Positions 28,889-40,188 of a stretch of DNA of 64,000 bases are shown piece by piece. Source of the stretch: Candidatus Kapaibacterium sp. (GTDB lineage Bacteria > Bacteroidota > Ignavibacteria > Kapaibacteriales > WFXC01); contig WFXC01000034.1 of assembly GCA_015490805.1 (NCBI GenBank), positions 24,656-88,655 of the forward strand. Reading direction: 5' to 3'. Position 1 is the stretch's first letter. The number at the start of each line of letters is the position of its first letter. A program made the position numbers and the translations under genes. The notes under the pieces are model-generated. The model had not been told where the DNA came from. It searched no databases and saw nothing but the letters and a program-made list of their open reading frames with translations.

Positions 28889-29526
28889 TGATCAAAGAGT
28901 TCCGGGTCGGTAAAATGACCATCGGGATGTCGGTGAATTCTGGCAAGCCGCTGCTCACCGCTCTGATAGAGTGGAAAAACACAGAGTCCACCCGGACGCA
29001 GTTGCTGGAGGAGGGCATCTGTAGGCATTGCGGTTGCTGCGGTGATGAGAATGCGATCGTATGGCGCCTTTTGGAACCACCCATCTGTCCCATCCCGGTG
29101 GATGCATTGAATCGGTAACTGGAGTTCCCGGAAGCGCTTTCGTGCCTGCTGATACAACCGTCGATCTCGTTCGACTGTAAAGACCTGCATTCCCAGGGCT
29201 GCCAGCACCGCCGCCTGATAGCCGCTTCCCGTGCCAATTTCCAGCACGGTCAAACCTGCCGCTGGCTGCAAAAGCGCTGTCATTCGGGCAACGGTCAGCG
29301 GCTGTGAAATTGTCTGTCCCCATCCGATGGGTAGTGCCGTGTTTTCATACGCTAAGTGGCGCAGCGGTTCAGGGAGGAAGTACTCTCGAGGAACACGCTC
29401 CATTGCCTGCCGGATTTCTGCTGGAATGCCAGATGTTGCCAGCAGGTGAAAAAGTCGTTCTCGATCCTTCTGTAATTTGTACCCGTGCATATTACGGCAC
29501 TGCCAGCGGTTGTGTTTCTTCAACAA
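28852..29526 (-). CDS. pcm: protein-L-isoaspartate O-methyltransferase
   Basis: 'VLEIGTGSGYQAAVLAALG' SAM-binding motif. The true start is probably the internal Met (MHGYKLQ) at about 29490. Confidence 0.8.
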   Translation of the reverse strand: MLKKHNRWQCRNMHGYKLQKDRERLFHLLATSGIPAEIRQAMERVPREYFLPEPLRHLAYENTALPIGWGQTISQPLTVARMTALLQPAAGLTVLEIGTGSGYQAAVLAALGMQVFTVERDRRLYQQARKRFRELQLPIQCIHRDGTDGWFQKAPYDRILITAATAMPTDALLQQLRPGGLCVFPLYQSGEQRLARIHRHPDGHFTDPELFDQCSFVPLRSSTV

Positions 29527-30301
29527 CCCGGGGTTCTGATAAAAGCGCTGTTAGCAGCATATTCTCCAGCTCCTTGCGACTCAAGTCCATAATAAGATTG
29601 CCAGCTTCTGCCAGGGAAATTCGTCCGGTTTCCTCGGAGACCACGATGACGAGCGCGTCGGTTTGTTCCGATAATCCCAGCGCTGCCCGATGCCGGGTCC
29701 CTAAGGTTTTTCCCCGATACTTTGCAACGGAGCTGAGGGGAAGAATACAACCTGCGGCTTCGATGACATCATTGTAGATAACGACAGCGCCGTCGTGCAG
29801 CGGAGATCGGGGATGGAAGATCGTCAGAAGCAGTTCTTTGGTTACTTTGCCCTGAATAGGCACACCGGTTTCGATCGTCATTCGAATATCCTGATTGCGA
29901 CGAATTACAATGAGTGCCCCAATGTGCCGCTCTGACATTTCCTGGACTGCTTCGACGATTTCCGTAATAACCTGCCGAATGTCGGTACGGGTCAGGAAGG
30001 ACAGAAAGGGTGAGCGGGTAAGATTCAGCAGCAGGCGGCGCAGTTCCGGCTGAAAGAGAACGATAAAAGCGATGAACCATACGCTTACGACCACATCCAG
30101 AACCCAGTGAATCGCGCGTAATCCCAGCACTTCGGTGACAAAATACGCGCCGATCAAGCCTACAACCCATACCAGCACTTTGCCAGCGGCTGTGTTCTGG
30201 AGGAGTCGAACCAGGTATGCGATGAGGAGCGTTAGCAAAGCAATATCGATGAGATCCAGCAGCGTGATTTTCAGGAAACCGATGGAGACCAATTCCCACA
30301 T
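29492..30301 (-). CDS. cdaA: diadenylate cyclase CdaA (membrane-anchored DAC domain)
   Basis: Three N-terminal TM helices; DAC motifs 'LHDGAVVI' and 'GTRHRAALG'. Confidence 0.8.
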   Translation of the reverse strand: MWELVSIGFLKITLLDLIDIALLTLLIAYLVRLLQNTAAGKVLVWVVGLIGAYFVTEVLGLRAIHWVLDVVVSVWFIAFIVLFQPELRRLLLNLTRSPFLSFLTRTDIRQVITEIVEAVQEMSERHIGALIVIRRNQDIRMTIETGVPIQGKVTKELLLTIFHPRSPLHDGAVVIYNDVIEAAGCILPLSSVAKYRGKTLGTRHRAALGLSEQTDALVIVVSEETGRISLAEAGNLIMDLSRKELENMLLTALLSEPRVVEETQPLAVP

Positions 30302-34097: not shown

Positions 34098-34383
34098 GGA
34101 TCTACTCCAACTCCTGTGCCAACGCCGGGGTTTATCCTATGCTGCTGAACAGATGCGGGCTTTGCAGCAGTTTGTTATCTATATGGATCGCCATAGCTAT
34201 TGGTTGAACGATATTCTGGAACAGGATGGTCGTCGACTGTTCCGCTTCAGCGATGAAACCTCGCACATCGATTTGAGCGAGGAACAGATCTGGGCATTTA
34301 TACAGCAACTCCGGCAGGGAAAGCCGCTGCCGTGGGAGCAGTTGATTTTGGGAACAAAGCAGGGACATAAGTATGAAGAGTGA
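34090..34383 (+). CDS. hypothetical small protein (97 aa), translationally coupled between mpl and the DinG-like gene
   Basis: The ORF exactly fills the 275-bp gap, overlapping mpl by 8 bp and the downstream gene by 11 bp. No recognisable motif. Confidence 0.35.
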   Translation: MSEDLLQLLCQRRGLSYAAEQMRALQQFVIYMDRHSYWLNDILEQDGRRLFRFSDETSHIDLSEEQIWAFIQQLRQGKPLPWEQLILGTKQGHKYEE

Positions 34384-37093
34384 AACGCCGCTGCAATATC
34401 TTGGATCTTTTGTAGCGCTGGATTTTGAAACGACCGGGACAGATGTTGCAAACGATGCCATTATTGAAATTGGTGCATTGAAATATGAGAACGGCCACGA
34501 GGTGGATCGCTTTCATACACTGGTCAACCCGTTTATGCCGCTGCCACCCTACATTACGGAGTTGACAGGGATCACTGAAGAAGATCTGCAAGCTGCCCCG
34601 GCTTTTGCCCATATTATCGAGCCTTTCTGGCAGTTTATTGATGGTTATCCTTTGATGGCGCATAATGCCCGGTTTGAGCTCAAGTTTCTCCAGAAGTTTT
34701 TTGGCAGAGATTTTCAACCGCCGTTGCTGGACACCGTCCAACTATTTCAACTGCTTTTTCCAGAGCAGCATTCCCATTCGCTGGAACAGGTTGCTCGACA
34801 TCTTGGGCTTTCGTTGCCCGGCGGGCAGAGCCATCGCGCACTGGAAGATGCAACATTGATGGTGGAAGCGGTGCAACGCGCGATTCATCTGTTAATGCTG
34901 CCAGAACACCATCATCTGATTGCCACTATCGTGGCACTTCTCGAACGGCTGGATGGTACCCGATGGCAATGGCGGACGCTGTTTCAGAATCTGCATCAAG
35001 TGCTTGGATTGCCTGCTGCTTCGCTTGACCAGAACCCGCTGTATCATCCGGGACTTCCTGAGGAAGAGAATCGACAAAGGGAAAAAGGAGCACTGGATCC
35101 ACTCTTTTTCTATCTGCCCGTTGCTGTTCAGGACGTGCTGGCAGAGTGGATAGAGAGTGTTGTTGCTACCCCGGTGCATTTTGTTGAAACCAGTAAGCGA
35201 GCGCGGCGCGTGGGAGATTGGTTGGCACAGCAGAATGGGGAATCTCTTCTTATTGCCTCTGAACCTTCGTGGGAATGGCTGCTCAGCACACTGCTGGGAG
35301 CGCTTTCGTACGTGCAGGAGACCGGCAAAGCTGTATGTATCGTAGCACCCGGTGCCCAGAAGCGGGAGGATCTTGTGGAAATTGCTCACTCGTTGAAGCA
35401 GTATTTGCAGGCAGAAGAGTTGCAGATCGATCGAGTGTGGCAGCCAGTGCACTTTGTCTGTCCCCGTCGACTGCCAGCGCTGCTGGAAGGGTATTATCCG
35501 GAGGGTGATGATCCGGTTGCCTCGGAGTTTTTTGTCCGCCTCTTTTTAACCCTGTGGGGAATGCGGACAACAACGGGACGGGTGCAGGAATTACCGCCGC
35601 AATTACGCTCTCACGTCAAGATCAGTCAGTGGCTGGAAAAGCTGACTCACCACACAGAGGAATGTCTTCAGCAAAGCAGCCAGTGCTTCTATGGTCGATA
35701 TTATCAGACGGCACGGAACGCGCACCTGCTGTTTGCTGATTACGGCGCTCTGTTGAATGCGCAGCAGCCAGAACTGCAATTGCTGCCGTTGCTTCGCCCG
35801 GCGATAATCGGACTGGAAGCAGAAGTGCTGGAGGATCTGCTGATCGCACAGAATACCATCCGCATCCCACTCCACCAGGTGCTGTCGCTATTGCATCATC
35901 TGGAGGATCGGCTTACAGAGCAGGAGGCATTTCGGTCAGCACGGTATGCGGTGGAAGAACTGCTGGCAGAGCTGCGTCAGTCACAGCGGCAACAAATTGT
36001 AACCTATGTTCCACTGTCAGGGCACGAACAATCATCAGAATGGCTGGCGAAATTGCACGGTGTCGGGCAGCAACTGCAATTGGTTGTTGAGCAATTGAAC
36101 CGGCTCCCGGCGGACTTTCAGCAGGAGAGAGAGCGAATAACCACAGTGCTCCAGGAGTGGAGTCAATTGCTGGACCAGTTCAGCCGGGCGAATTACGTGA
36201 GCTATGGACAGTTGCATCGGGATGGCAACACTTTTTTGGTTTCCTCGCAATTGCAGCTTACAGATTCAGTGGAGCAATTGCTCTCTATATGGCAGAATGC
36301 TTCAACAGTTCTATTGAGTTCCTCATTGTTTTATCATCCCGAAGAGCGCCACCGTTTGAGCGAGCTTTTCTTTGGCACTACTGCTGTACCTTTTGTTGAT
36401 CTGCCACTGGAATCTGCACGACGGGGCAAGGTCATCTTTACGAAAGGACTGCCGCGATCATCCAGCGAATATTTCGGTGAGAAAATCGCTTTGATGCTCC
36501 ACAGATTGCTGCCGTTGCTACCAGCTAATGCCTGGATTGTTGCACACCAGCGGAACGTGCTGAGCCGGATCTACCAGTTGGTGCAGGAAATTTTGGGTGA
36601 TCGGCTGATATATTATGGCAAGACGCACCGCACGTTGACCGCACTACGGGAAGAGTTAGCACAGCGGGAAGATGCCGTTCTGCTTTCGCGGCCACTGGAT
36701 TTCCACGCTTTAGGTTATCGCTTTGGTCCATTCCGATGGATCATTTATGATCGGCTGCCATATATCATTCCAACCCCACGAACGCAGGCACTTCGCCAGC
36801 AGTGGCTGGATGCCGTAGAGGAATCAGGTGAGATGCCAGCGCTAAATGATTGGGAAGCAATTGAACAACCGATGATGTTTCGCAATTTCCGGAAATTATT
36901 CGATTTCGTCAGTTACGGCGTGCAGGATGCGTATACGGTTGCCGTGCTGGATCCAAACTTAAGCTCGACGACGCTCGCAAGCTATCACCGCCGAATGCTG
37001 GAATATGTGCCACACATTAAGCCCGTACTGGAACACTATGAACAAATCATCGCTGCTGCAACGGGTCCTGTTGCTGGCGTAGCACCTTCATAA
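34373..37093 (+). CDS. DinG-like protein: N-terminal DnaQ/DEDDh 3'-5' exonuclease domain fused to a helicase-like domain lacking Walker A and DEAH motifs
   Basis: Exo I 'ALDFETTG', Exo II 'AHNARFELKFL', Exo III 'HRALEDA'. C-terminal XPD/DinG-like motifs 'TVLLSSSLFY...FVDLP' and 'IIYDRLPYIIPTP'. No GxGKT anywhere in the 906 aa. Confidence 0.6.
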   Translation: MKSETPLQYLGSFVALDFETTGTDVANDAIIEIGALKYENGHEVDRFHTLVNPFMPLPPYITELTGITEEDLQAAPAFAHIIEPFWQFIDGYPLMAHNARFELKFLQKFFGRDFQPPLLDTVQLFQLLFPEQHSHSLEQVARHLGLSLPGGQSHRALEDATLMVEAVQRAIHLLMLPEHHHLIATIVALLERLDGTRWQWRTLFQNLHQVLGLPAASLDQNPLYHPGLPEEENRQREKGALDPLFFYLPVAVQDVLAEWIESVVATPVHFVETSKRARRVGDWLAQQNGESLLIASEPSWEWLLSTLLGALSYVQETGKAVCIVAPGAQKREDLVEIAHSLKQYLQAEELQIDRVWQPVHFVCPRRLPALLEGYYPEGDDPVASEFFVRLFLTLWGMRTTTGRVQELPPQLRSHVKISQWLEKLTHHTEECLQQSSQCFYGRYYQTARNAHLLFADYGALLNAQQPELQLLPLLRPAIIGLEAEVLEDLLIAQNTIRIPLHQVLSLLHHLEDRLTEQEAFRSARYAVEELLAELRQSQRQQIVTYVPLSGHEQSSEWLAKLHGVGQQLQLVVEQLNRLPADFQQERERITTVLQEWSQLLDQFSRANYVSYGQLHRDGNTFLVSSQLQLTDSVEQLLSIWQNASTVLLSSSLFYHPEERHRLSELFFGTTAVPFVDLPLESARRGKVIFTKGLPRSSSEYFGEKIALMLHRLLPLLPANAWIVAHQRNVLSRIYQLVQEILGDRLIYYGKTHRTLTALREELAQREDAVLLSRPLDFHALGYRFGPFRWIIYDRLPYIIPTPRTQALRQQWLDAVEESGEMPALNDWEAIEQPMMFRNFRKLFDFVSYGVQDAYTVAVLDPNLSSTTLASYHRRMLEYVPHIKPVLEHYEQIIAAATGPVAGVAPS

Positions 37094-37268
37094 AACGTCG
37101 ATGGTGCGAATTGTTAAAAAAATGACACTGCTGGCACTGCCTGTACAATACTTTGAAAAAGAAATTCGTTGTACGCTTTTGTAACCTTCTATGTGAAAAA
37201 TTTTTGGCGTGTCGCCCTCTTGATTTTTTATAACCGAATTGTTTAACAAATCGCGGGAGAACCAACAG

Positions 37269-37679
37269 ATGGCAAAACGAAAGAAAGCGGCTGAAGCAAC
37301 GGAGACAACCAGCGAAGCCACGAGTCAGGCAGAAAAGAAGCGCACTTATGCGAGCGAGTATTACCAGCGGAATCGTGAGCGGATCCTGGCATATCTCCGG
37401 AAGCGCTATCACGAAGATCCGGAGTATCGGGAAAAGGTAAAAAAGCGAGCGCTGGAACGGTATCACAACGATCCGGAGTATCGCCGGCGAACGATTGAGC
37501 GTGCCAAGCAGCGATATTACCGGATGCGGGAAGCGCTGATGATCCTGGAGCGTCAGCGGGCAGAAGAAGAAGCACGGAAGCAGAAGGAGCAAGAGGCGAA
37601 GAAAGCGGCAAAAAAGAGCGCAAAGTCCGCCAGTAGCACCAAGAAAACCAGCAGTTCAAAGAAGAAAAAGAAGAAGTAA
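37269..37679 (+). CDS. lysine/arginine-rich histone-H1-like (putative nucleoid-associated) protein with tandem YH-DPEYR repeats
   Basis: Start at 37269 behind a GGGAGAA RBS. 'YHEDPEYREKVKKRALERYHNDPEYRRRTIERAKQRYY' followed by a 'KKAAKKSAKSASSTKKTSSSKKKKKK' tail. The gene has its own AT-rich upstream region and terminator. Confidence 0.5.
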   Translation: MAKRKKAAEATETTSEATSQAEKKRTYASEYYQRNRERILAYLRKRYHEDPEYREKVKKRALERYHNDPEYRRRTIERAKQRYYRMREALMILERQRAEEEARKQKEQEAKKAAKKSAKSASSTKKTSSSKKKKKK

Positions 37680-37726
37680 CGACTCGGCAAGAAGAGCTTA
37701 GCAGACCAGAGGTGTGACTCAAGTGA

Positions 37727-37762
37727 GCGGGAAACTGCTGATAGCGGTTTCCCGCTTTTTTG
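37727..37762 (+). terminator. rho-independent terminator (stem AGCGGGAAAC/GTTTCCCGCT + T6)
   Basis: 10-bp GC-rich stem, 11-nt loop and a TTTTTTGTTG run, 48 nt after the stop of the basic protein gene. Confidence 0.6.
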
Positions 37763-37787
37763 TTGCATTTTTATAAGCAATGCTACT

Positions 37788-38747
37788 TTGCCGGAAATGA
37801 CGCGTCGTAGCACTCCATCGCAGCGCAAGCAGTTTTCGTTTCGTTTATTTCAACGATGGAGCGCGGAAGCAAAAGCATTAGGGGGATTTTCTCTTGTTGT
37901 GCTGTTCCTTTTGGCACTTATTCTCATATCGCGCTTATGGGAAACGCTCTGGCTACTACCATTGTTCATCTCCGCCGGCGCTGGTATTTATCTGGGTTAC
38001 CGACAGAAGCTGCGGCTGCGGACGAAAAGTCTGAGTCTGGTTATGAAAGATATTCTTACCGGGAATATCGAAGGGCTTTACGGATTGATTGCTATGCTGG
38101 TGTTTTTGATCTTGACGTCGTGGGTTGCTGATGATCTGCACGATCACCAGTATAGTTATGCAGTGCTGTCGCTACTGGCAATCTGGATCCTGGGAATGCT
38201 CTTTATTGTCTGGTATCCGCTCGAATCCCAATCTCCGGAGAAGGTGCCACCTAAGGTACTGGTTATGGCGTTGTCGGCTTTTTCGGGAGATGTGGAGCAG
38301 TTTCGACAGTCGTTGACCCATCTTCACCAGCAAAAACTTCCTGGCAACTGGGAATTGCCGCTTCGAGCAGTGCTCTCTAAACCCGGTTTGGAACATGTTT
38401 TCTTTTTAAGCAGTAAGAAATCCTGGGATCAGCGTCAGGAGTTTGAAAAATTGCTGGACGAAGCTCTATTGTTGAATGGTCACGAAGCTACGTCGCTGAA
38501 CGTGCAAGATTTGCCCAGGAAGCCACAATTGCACTTTAAGGGTCCGGTGGATTTTGACAGTTTTCAAGATATCAAGCAAAATCTTTTGAAGATTCTGGAG
38601 GAAATTCACTCGACCCGTGGCCGACGCTACCGTGATGAGGAAATTATTGTGAACATCAGTGGTGGAACCTCCGCAGTGACCTTAGCATTGACGCTCAAAG
38701 TAGCCAAGAAGCGGCGTTATAAGCAGGATTGCTACAACACATTATAA
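37788..38747 (+). CDS. 4-TM membrane protein with cytoplasmic Rossmann-like domain carrying CARF/Card1-like motifs (putative ligand-sensing membrane effector)
   Basis: Four hydrophobic helices in residues ~30-150. The C-terminal domain begins 'KVLVMALSAFSGD' (strand 1 plus Ser loop) and carries 'EIIVNISGGTSAVTLAL', which resembles the Card1/Can1 CARF motif 'NIIVNITGGTKIMSLAAF'. Confidence 0.4.
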   Translation: MPEMTRRSTPSQRKQFSFRLFQRWSAEAKALGGFSLVVLFLLALILISRLWETLWLLPLFISAGAGIYLGYRQKLRLRTKSLSLVMKDILTGNIEGLYGLIAMLVFLILTSWVADDLHDHQYSYAVLSLLAIWILGMLFIVWYPLESQSPEKVPPKVLVMALSAFSGDVEQFRQSLTHLHQQKLPGNWELPLRAVLSKPGLEHVFFLSSKKSWDQRQEFEKLLDEALLLNGHEATSLNVQDLPRKPQLHFKGPVDFDSFQDIKQNLLKILEEIHSTRGRRYRDEEIIVNISGGTSAVTLALTLKVAKKRRYKQDCYNTL

Positions 38748-38901
38748 GAACTCTTATGTTAAGTTCGGGTTTGCCGAGCTTCCTTGCGCTGATCGACCGC
38801 CACTGTTCTTACACATCCCTCGTAACATTCTCTCCGCAAAGGAGTTAATCTTGAGGTTGTGAGAGTAAGTTTGTATGTTTCACAGTTGAGGAGTCGGGCC
38901 T

Positions 38902-40188
38902 ATGCGGCGCGAGTTCCATCTTATCAGTATTTTCCTGTTCATAGTCACAGCCCTGTTTATCGCCTCTTCCTGCCAGAAACAACCGACAGTACCTGATGAT
39001 AAAGTGAGTGGTTGTTGCGGCGAGTTTCAGTTAACGGTTCGTGATTCTGCGGAGCATCCAGTAGCGGATCTGTATGTTGCGCTGCTCCAGAGCGGAGACA
39101 CCATTCACGTTGGGTGGACAACTGTCAGCGGGATTGTGTCCTTTGATTCCCTCTGCCCCGGTGACTACAGTTTTATTGTGGCTGACTCCTCCGATTTTCA
39201 TCCTGTTATTGCCTATGGGCACTTTACCATTGATTCCTGTGGGAAAGTACAGAAACATCTTACGCTGTCGCCCCGCCATGGTGATGGATACAGCAAGAGA
39301 GATTCCAGTGATTGCTGTCAGAGCATGCTCGTCGTGGAAGTACAGGATACCACAGAGGCAGGAACTCCCATTCACGGCGCTGCCGTTGTTTTGAAGTCTG
39401 TGCACGGGCAACCGCTGGATACCAAGTTGACCGATGTCGAGGGTCAGGTTGTTTTCACTTCTTTATGTTCCGGCACCTATATTGTTGTCGTAGAGGCAGA
39501 TGGCTATTACCGTTATGAAAATTCAGTCCATATTGGCTGTAATGACACGACTGAATACTCGGTGGAACTTGCAGCGGTCGTGGAATGTTGCGATAACCGG
39601 GTGTGGGTACAGGTGCAGGATCGAGAGCATCAGGCGGTTGAGGGAGCGTGGGTTGAGTTGCTGGATCTTGGCCACCGTCCCGTCCGGGTGATCCGCTCTG
39701 GATATACCAACGCCGATGGTGTCATTGTGTGGGAAGATCTTTGTACCGGTCGCTATCTGATACGAGCTACTTACACTATTGCTGGCGAACACGGTGACTC
39801 TTTGCTGATTGTAGCCAAGGAAGATTTCGAGCTCGAGTGTGAAGATAACAAAGAGATAGTTCTGACTCTCGAGCCACTCCGGGAATGCTGCAATCACCTG
39901 TTACACGTCGTTTTGCAGGACAATCGTACCTCCCCTCCCTCACCAATAGCTGATGCAGAAGTGCGATTGCGGTACCCCAACGGCGAAACCATCGAAACAG
40001 CCCATACAAACGATGATGGTGAGGCGTGGTTCGACGGAATTTGCCGTGGAACGTATGAGGTCCGGATTGCACATCCGGACTATCCGGTCCAGGAAATTGT
40101 CATAGAATTTCCCTGCAAGCGCCAGCAGCTTGATCTGGTTGTTGTGTTTACCGGTTCAACCGCACAGGTGCGTATCTCAACAGAGTAA
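38902..40188 (+). CDS. lipoprotein composed of four tandem Cys-rich ~95-aa transthyretin/carboxypeptidase-regulatory-like domains
   Basis: Lipobox 'FIASSC'. Four repeats each start with CC, have a central 'LC.G.Y' and a distal Cys; they begin at nt 39013, 39313, 39586 and 39886. Confidence 0.6.
   Translation: MRREFHLISIFLFIVTALFIASSCQKQPTVPDDKVSGCCGEFQLTVRDSAEHPVADLYVALLQSGDTIHVGWTTVSGIVSFDSLCPGDYSFIVADSSDFHPVIAYGHFTIDSCGKVQKHLTLSPRHGDGYSKRDSSDCCQSMLVVEVQDTTEAGTPIHGAAVVLKSVHGQPLDTKLTDVEGQVVFTSLCSGTYIVVVEADGYYRYENSVHIGCNDTTEYSVELAAVVECCDNRVWVQVQDREHQAVEGAWVELLDLGHRPVRVIRSGYTNADGVIVWEDLCTGRYLIRATYTIAGEHGDSLLIVAKEDFELECEDNKEIVLTLEPLRECCNHLLHVVLQDNRTSPPSPIADAEVRLRYPNGETIETAHTNDDGEAWFDGICRGTYEVRIAHPDYPVQEIVIEFPCKRQQLDLVVVFTGSTAQVRISTE

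Follow-up and report, generated by a model that had tools for sequence, protein, structure and literature searches.

The locus described here comes from a hydrothermal-vent Candidatus Kapaibacterium (Bacteroidota). We analysed a stretch of 64,000 nucleotides from this organism (hereafter the window, whose positions are used throughout). Our focus is an ORF on its forward strand, at 37788..38747, that was previously unannotated: it has no Pfam match above threshold and carries no name in the source. [quoted passage not shown] The ORF is indeed present, but translation almost certainly begins at the ATG of 37797, for a product of 316 aa, because all orthologues begin with MTRRS or MMRRS and the public gene call (P0001) is also 316 aa. 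The TTG at 37788, three codons 5' of this ATG, is probably not used as a start. In what follows, we refer to this gene as the TM-CARF gene. Its features are collected in Table 1.

The gene sits in a fixed neighbourhood, common to the window and to three orthologues (72-78% identity, 350-360 aa). In order, the shared genes encode a Mpl-type Mur ligase, a 97-aa protein, a DnaQ/DinG-like 906-aa protein, a 136-aa basic protein and the TM-CARF protein, followed by a 428-aa CarboxypepD_reg lipoprotein, two enoyl-CoA hydratases, a 3-hydroxyacyl-CoA dehydrogenase and a LolE-type permease. The terminator that the earlier note had placed ahead of the gene is a strong intrinsic one: it ends the gene for the basic protein about 30 nt 5' of the TM-CARF ATG, separates the two genes and is identical in the orthologous loci. 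Two further ORFs of the window encode Band7 and NfeD proteins. The earlier note had also described the surroundings as free of CRISPR-Cas, and we agree. No CRISPR array was found in the 64-kb window by Tandem Repeats Finder, Rfam or a spaced-repeat scan, tblastn with the full Cmr protein set gave no match in it, and Pfam annotation of matching contigs (covering ~2.9-62.8 kb of the window) returned housekeeping genes only. The same holds for the Kapaibacterium loci in general, where no cas genes lie within 10 kb of the TM-CARF gene.

Table 1. Features of the TM-CARF locus, in window coordinates.
Feature	Position	Strand	Basis
Intrinsic terminator of the upstream 136-aa basic-protein gene	37725..37767	+	15-bp stem (37725-37757) and T-run
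TM-CARF CDS, truncated allele, 316 aa from ATG	37797..38747	+	PADLOC CARF8--CARF_TM, E=3.5e-15
Basic N-terminal segment, aa 1-26, 7 Arg/Lys	37797..37874	+	Read from sequence; helical in models
TM1 (aa 27-48) and TM2 (aa 51-72)	37875..38012	+	Hydropathy, model, DNA alignment
Short amphipathic helix between TM2 and TM3, aa 79-88	38031..38060	+	AlphaFold models
TM3 (aa 94-115) and TM4 (aa 119-139)	38076..38213	+	Hydropathy, alignments, model
CARF strand 1 and Ser loop (motif I), KVLVMALSAFSGD, aa 153-165	38253..38291	+	Family alignments
CARF strand 4 and motif II, EIIVNISGGTSAVTLALTL	38640..38696	+	Family alignments
Deletion junction	38696..38697	+	DNA alignment with three orthologues
Non-homologous tail KVAKKRRYKQDCYNTL (16 residues) and stop codon	38697..38747	+	DNA alignment, model

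The four N-terminal TM helices are borne out by hydropathy and structure prediction. In the window copy, three segments are strong on the Kyte-Doolittle scale (cut-off 1.6). TM2 is weaker and stays under this threshold; the orthologues show it clearly, and it forms a helix in both AlphaFold models, that of the window protein and that of a full-length orthologue (P0002). TM3 ends in a near-invariant SWxAD motif, whose window version is TSWVADDL (38115-38138). The basic segment ahead of TM1 is predicted by the positive-inside rule to lie on the cytoplasmic side. With a basic N-terminus and an even number of helices, the same rule would also place the C-terminal domain in the cytoplasm.

The soluble part of the protein had been called a ~170-aa cytoplasmic CARF domain on the strength of two motifs, and both are where they were said to be: motif I (Table 1) and EIIVNISGGTSAVTLAL, which begins at aa 282 in the 316-aa numbering. 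The Ser of motif I is invariant in the family alignments, as are the Gly and Thr of motif II, which is the last segment of the window protein that is homologous to the family. The window protein also retains ALS and ISGGTS, two short stretches that vary little or not at all within the family. The Ser that occupies the R/K position of the CARF signature [DN]x[ST]xxx[RK], already pointed out in the earlier note, recurs throughout the family alignments. Further conserved blocks of the family are KKVLIxALS, NWxxPLR, LVSxES, DFNDY, DEDISVNISGGTSAVT and EGRQxEYxxQ, in addition to the SWxAD that closes TM3.

Pfam and NCBIfam returned sub-threshold CARF matches only for the window protein. PADLOC models were far more informative: we used two 'CARF8--CARF_TM' models (PDLC01944 and PDLC01947) and a 'TM+CARF' Csx1 model (PDLC01053). 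The CARF8--CARF_TM match spans residues 36-308 of the protein and positions 10-291 of 339 in the profile, and the Csx1 model matches at E=7e-14; both run across the membrane and soluble parts. The orthologues and relatives score 1e-17 to 1e-22 against these models. Alignments of full-length relatives extend to 317/339, 209/212 and 197/200 of the models, whereas those of the window protein stop at 291/339 in the CARF8--CARF_TM model, ~45 profile positions early, and at 191/212 in the Csx1 model. We are therefore very confident that the gene belongs to the family modelled in PADLOC as CARF8--CARF_TM/TM+CARF. An exhaustive profile search gave 383 representatives of this family at 50% clustering, 33 of them below 1e-30. 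The model names with the CARF8 label follow the CARF classification of Makarova et al. 2020. The family is thus already catalogued and mainly CRISPR-linked (see below), and it is not a new non-CRISPR sensor. Experimental studies of this clade are not known to us.

Structure prediction leads to the same domain. The AlphaFold2 model of the orthologue P0002, which is 78% identical to the window protein, has a pLDDT of 86.3 and a pTM of 0.75. It displays, in order, TM1, TM2, the short amphipathic helix, TM3, TM4, a six-stranded Rossmann-like beta-alpha domain and a C-terminal helix. In a Foldseek search against the PDB, the CARF domain of Cam1 ranked first (8T65, E=2e-5, target-normalised TM-score of 0.66-0.68); behind it came Csm6, Can2, ring nucleases, Csa3 and Cad1. 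As the Rossmann-like model agrees better with solved CARF domains than with other Rossmann folds, we assign the soluble domain to CARF; neither a non-Rossmann fold nor an unrelated family, the outcomes that would have spoken against the earlier call, was seen. Sequence searches of PDB chains, whether started from the protein or from the family profile, produced no meaningful match (the best was to a coiled region of Cas12m, E=0.007).

The company kept by relatives points to type III CRISPR-Cas. A word-indexed search yielded a single distant relative, P0005 (32% identity), in an Aquificaceae MAG. There the gene closes a SAVED-Cas6-Cmr1-Cas10-Cmr3-Cmr4-Cmr5-Cmr6 operon, its start lying one base past cmr6. 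We then scanned one genome per species with a 14-sequence alignment as the query and obtained 12 loci, of which one belongs to Candidatus Kapaibacterium and 11 to Aquificaceae, Hydrogenothermaceae, Thermotogota and WOR-3. At 8 of these 11 the family gene lies in or beside type III cas genes (six strong full-operon matches and two weaker ones, to Cas10 or Cas6), and four of the 11 have CRISPR arrays in their flanks. At the remaining three loci (L015, L021 and L023), PADLOC found no cas genes within the available flanks. A metagenome scan for the family added one short locus, and a scan of viral contigs gave no family member. A second protein-database search with the family profile, over a capped set of candidates, contributed no further members. 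With cas genes at most loci and none at three, the family is primarily one of type III ancillary effectors with occasional orphans.

In Kapaibacterium, the gene is such an orphan. Among the intact orthologues its dN/dS is 0.26-0.30, compared to 0.01-0.13 for the housekeeping neighbours and 0.15-0.26 for the lipoprotein gene, which indicates that the intact gene is under real but relaxed (moderate) purifying selection. One reading would be that the intact orthologues, and ancestrally the window gene, sense a housekeeping nucleotide such as c-di-AMP rather than a CRISPR cOA. A gene for CdaA (CdaA_N and DAC domains), the sole nucleotide cyclase in the window and a source of c-di-AMP, lies 7.5 kb upstream in every syntenic locus, and the family has Ser where motif II canonically carries R/K. 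We regard this as very improbable. CdaA is encoded on the opposite strand, with five unrelated genes in between, and is a common housekeeping gene; we found neither co-variation nor an operon link between it and the TM-CARF gene. Moreover, the type III-linked relatives have the same Ser, so it is not special to orphans. No gene for mCpol or another cyclase adjoins the TM-CARF gene.

What sets the window copy apart from its relatives is its 3' end. Relative to all three orthologues, the DNA alignment displays a clean 163-bp deletion, which removes 46 codons, the stop codon and 22 nt of spacer. Inspection of the alignment revealed no microhomology at the junction. The window protein diverges from the orthologues straight after ...SAVTLALTL and stops ~40 residues early, with a 16-residue tail encoded by sequence that falls between genes in the orthologues. 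This tail is mostly disordered in the model of the window protein (pLDDT <50 for residues 305-316). The CARF domain of the earlier note is thus real but incomplete: the window allele keeps the first ~147 aa of a domain of ~195 aa, to which the 16 unrelated residues are joined. We also considered a frameshift, as the +1-frame peptide 3' of the stop codon (ADRPPLFLHIPRNILSAKELILRL) resembles the orthologue C-terminus. That stretch is intergenic in the orthologues too, and the frameshift was rejected.

The window allele differs from that of locus L001 in a second way. Outside the gene the two are 100% identical for ~680 bp upstream (37081-37760) and ~400 bp downstream (38793-39192), and the neighbouring genes have a dS of 0.00-0.04. 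Inside the TM-CARF gene identity drops to 42-98%, with an overall dS of 0.32. The TM1-TM2 tract in particular is a strongly diverged mosaic (dS 1.25 against L001, dN/dS ~0.36), with a loop that is 42 nt (14 codons) shorter and a 6-nt CTGCGG duplication. While the L001 allele fits the species tree together with L003 and L005, the window allele is an outlier. Identical flanks around a tract with a dS of 1.25 lead us to reject decay of this tract in situ and favour import of a diverged allele by recombination, which is our best reading of the sequences.

Sharp changes in one gene invite the suspicion that the deletion and the mosaic tract are metagenome-assembly artefacts (e.g. strain chimeras or a collapsed assembly). 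All the sequences do come from metagenome assemblies, and the divergence is sharply confined to the TM-CARF gene. However, 6 contigs that come from several samples and were built by different assemblers (NCBI MAG, ENA and Logan) encode the identical 316-aa product. Among the assemblies, GCA_015491775.1 has the truncated allele, while GCA_015487135.1, GCA_027082775.1 and GCA_026996895.1 have intact ones. Recovery of one product from three assembly sources argues for a real allele; an artefact is hardly credible, and that the 163-bp deletion is genuine we hold to be practically certain.

The deletion removes the C-terminal motif that is most strongly conserved in the family. Mapped on the P0002 model, it begins at F315, within the helix 306-320, and takes the second half of this helix, strand 5 (322-326), strand 6 (339-342) and the helix 346-359. 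Consistent with this, the model of the window protein has strands 1-4 only, and the complete CARF domain, with strands 5-6 that contribute to the dimer and the ligand pocket, is present in the orthologues and absent in the window allele. The deleted block also holds R321, Y325 and Q328, three positions that do not vary in the 14-sequence alignment and are part of the near-invariant RQxEYxxQ. We compared 99 representatives in which motif II is recognisable. A median of 50 residues follows the Thr of this motif, and an aromatic-x-x-Q occurs at the expected distance in 84. Fewer than 35 residues follow the Thr in just two of the 99: the window allele (25) and one apparent fragment (23). Because the distant type III-linked relatives have the C-terminal block, the window state is the derived one.

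These losses bear on the function proposed in the earlier note, a stand-alone nucleotide-gated membrane effector. Such a protein would work with a messenger made elsewhere in the genome, or with a different ligand. It could draw on intact CARF motifs I and II and an intact TM domain, on a gene that is its own terminator-bounded unit and on an allele that persists in several samples. The three family loci elsewhere that are also without nearby cas genes demonstrate that orphans exist. Yet two of the six core strands, the C-terminal helix and RQxEYxxQ are deleted, essentially no other family member is without this block, and the lost Gln matches, by spacing, a residue that is essential for the cA4 response of Chp1 (discussed below). 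We consider a working stand-alone effector unlikely. The earlier note was right about the CARF domain at the level of motifs, but its functional inference does not hold for this copy, because the sensor domain is incomplete.

A truncated protein need not be an idle one. In the retained part all family-invariant residues are kept, without a frameshift or an internal stop codon, and the CARF portion has a dN/dS of ~0.3 relative to the orthologues. Beyond the deletion itself, then, there is no positive signature of decay, although the statistical power of this comparison is low. Present in several samples, the allele is evidently tolerated and may even be maintained. It could therefore be asked whether selection keeps the truncated protein in a new, ligand-independent role, such as an ungated membrane protein or a dominant-negative or regulatory partner. 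The open frame and the conserved residues 5' of the junction, a dN/dS of ~0.3-0.4 and the persistence of the allele would all fit, as would an allele-replacement hotspot in an otherwise clonal background, which is typical of diversifying selection. On the other hand, the new tail is unconserved, formerly intergenic sequence that is predicted to be disordered, and the dN/dS signal may reflect history before a recent deletion. To our minds, a new role of this type is improbable.

A broader scheme would make the intact Kapaibacterium orthologues a domesticated, CRISPR-independent 4TM-CARF channel, retained in its fixed neighbourhood and gated by the cOA of a distant type III system or by a non-CRISPR nucleotide (e.g. 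c-di-AMP). The gene would then serve as a hotspot of allele replacement, where truncated alleles that are blind to ligand, such as that of the window, segregate, for example because they escape the cost of self-intoxication. We offer this scheme as a doubtful, rather speculative one.

The reading we prefer is that the window gene is a 3'-truncated, orphaned allele of a 4TM-CARF effector, likely crippled and probably non-functional, that segregates in the population. By analogy with Cam1 and Chp1, intact family members would act as ancillary effectors of type III CRISPR-Cas. Their cytoplasmic CARF domains may form dimers that bind a Cas10-made cyclic oligoadenylate. The bound ligand would gate a pore lined by TM3, or otherwise perturb the membrane through the four-helix TM domain, and the change in the membrane would depolarise the cell and arrest its growth. 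In the Kapaibacterium lineage, the gene appears to have parted from nearby cas genes while being kept in its housekeeping neighbourhood. In the window strain, the deletion would then have left a membrane domain with a four-stranded CARF stump. A CARF domain truncated in this manner most likely has no ligand pocket or dimer, and hence no nucleotide gating. Conservation within the family, together with the spacing relative to Chp1, likewise suggests that the window allele has probably lost ligand sensing.

Several points follow for the field. A previously unannotated ORF now has a place in a recognised class of CRISPR-linked membrane effectors, whose intact 4TM-CARF module occurs both in type III-B operons of thermophiles and as a conserved orphan. 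Localised allele replacement and a segregating truncation in near-clonal strains provide a small natural example of the turnover/loss of abortive-infection-type effectors. The finding leaves the current understanding of CARF signalling unchanged.

How, then, does the TM-CARF family relate to characterised effectors? Its relatives in PADLOC's CARF8--CARF_TM class sit in type III-B loci, a cas neighbourhood that the window copy does not share. Can2/Card1 have a similar 'N-I-[ST]-G-G-T' motif II, but are soluble CARF-nuclease fusions without TM helices, and the R/K of their motif II is Ser in the TM-CARF family. Cap1 differs: it combines two TM helices with a non-canonical CARF-like domain and DUF4579. 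Outside CRISPR-Cas, the Panoptes type II effector also fuses CARF to TM helices; it is encoded adjacent to mCpol and held inactive by cA3 (PMC13577387). Its order is the reverse of that in the TM-CARF family (CARF N-terminal, TM C-terminal) and mCpol is absent in the window. Panoptes type II does illustrate that CARF membrane effectors can work with a cyclase other than Cas10.

Cam1 is the protein to which the earlier note had likened the architecture. Cam1 from Nitrosococcus halophilus is a cA4-activated, membrane-depolarising effector of 206 aa, with one TM helix and a conserved pore-lining Asp17 (PMC10808066; PDB 8T64-8T66). The likeness holds for the general class, as an N-terminal TM part followed by a C-terminal CARF domain is a logic common to both. 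It does not extend further: the TM-CARF family has four TM helices in 310-365 aa, identity to Cam1 is 12-16% and the fold alone is similar (Foldseek). Neither phmmer nor the family profile matched the Cam1 chains among the PDB sequences. The TM-CARF protein is thus not Cam1 in the strict sense of Baca et al. 2024. In their census, Hoikkala et al. 2024 (PMC11229360) took a TM domain as the criterion that tells Cam1 apart from Csx1 cross-annotations, and under this criterion CARF+TM proteins like TM-CARF would probably be typed as 'Cam1'.

The closest architecture is that of Chp1/BbChp (Chp stands for CRISPR-associated HAD phosphatase), which joins a HAD domain to four TM helices and a CARF domain. 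It forms a tetrameric pore that is gated by cA4 and has lipid fenestrations (PMC12715507; bioRxiv 10.64898/2026.08.05.743128). After the HAD domain, the order in Chp1 is TM1-TM2, a cytosolic segment J, TM3-TM4, a linker and CARF, just as in the TM-CARF family, and segment J takes the position of our amphipathic helix, to which it may be analogous. Pfam found no HAD domain in the window protein or in the longer family members. Single residues can be compared by published residue numbers only, and on this basis the parallels extend from the membrane to the ligand site. W263/N266 in TM3 of Chp1 would correspond to W123/D126 (a Trp, then Asn/Asp at +3), and S357-x-F359 after strand 1 to S174-x-F176. 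The distance T472-Q495, 23 residues, equals that of T305-Q328 in the TM-CARF family, and Y492 (three before Q495) matches Y325 in spacing (three before Q328), with the Tyr at +20 from the Thr. Of the ligand-contact mutants tested in Chp1, only T472A and Q495A abolish function (bioRxiv 10.64898/2026.08.05.743128). If T472/Q495 do correspond to T305/Q328, as the numbering suggests, the window deletion takes out an essential phosphate-contacting Gln; the Tyr/Gln block is absent altogether from the window allele. Intact sister alleles are the better experimental targets; they offer a compact 4TM-CARF module, much like Chp1 without its HAD domain.

The gene for TM-CARF, the four-helix membrane protein with a CARF domain, looks like the product of a single-gene recombination that replaced the resident allele in the window's strain. 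When the window is compared with L001 (the syntenic locus of a near-clonal strain, with an intact orthologue), divergence is restricted exactly to this gene and the flanks are 100% identical. In the tract encoding the first two membrane helices (TM1-TM2), dS between the two reaches 1.25, the window's TM1-TM2 loop is 42 nt shorter and a CTGCGG duplication is present.

Coordinates of the divergent tract and of genes discussed in the text
Feature	Location	Strand	Remarks
Divergent tract, TM1-TM2	window 37875-38035		part of a broader zone of divergence, about 37761-38792
Lys/Arg/Glu-rich protein, 136 aa	window 37269-37679	+	ORF from 37239
DnaQ-exonuclease/DinG-like helicase fusion, 906 aa	window 34373-37093	+	
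CdaA-type diadenylate cyclase	window 29492-30301	-	CdaA_N + DAC domains
Predicted lipoprotein, 428 aa	window 38902-40188	+	directly downstream of TM-CARF gene
Conserved gene 3' of TM-CARF gene, ~284-298 aa	L007 10815-11666		also L017, L020, L022, L024
SAVED-domain protein, 480 aa	L007 1790-3232		upstream of cas6; homologous positions in L017, L020, L022

The basic upstream protein carries recurring RYHxDPEYR motifs, matches no family in Pfam, NCBIfam or PADLOC and is extremely conserved across Kapaibacterium loci (dN/dS about 0.04). The DnaQ/DinG-like fusion has a sub-cutoff match to TIGR01407; in PADLOC it hits DEDDh at 3e-38, with a weak hit (2e-10) to the DinG model associated with type IV-A. 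Since it is conserved (dN/dS about 0.1), its most likely role is in housekeeping repair rather than in defence. Downstream, the predicted lipoprotein has four CarboxypepD_reg/SdrD_B-type repeats, each with conserved Cys pairs, and its synteny is kept in all Kapaibacterium loci.

The cyclase is worth recording because the earlier note listed c-di-AMP among its candidate ligands. All syntenic loci have its gene 7.5 kb upstream of the one for TM-CARF, a proximity that is probably a housekeeping coincidence.

In Aquificales type III-B (Cmr) loci, the conserved gene that follows TM-CARF encodes a product with 73-90% identity from locus to locus, which could be an additional ancillary component of these systems. 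The SAVED-domain protein and TM-CARF are encoded in the same Cmr operons (L007, L017, L020, L022), and each such locus therefore has two different cyclic-nucleotide sensor effectors.
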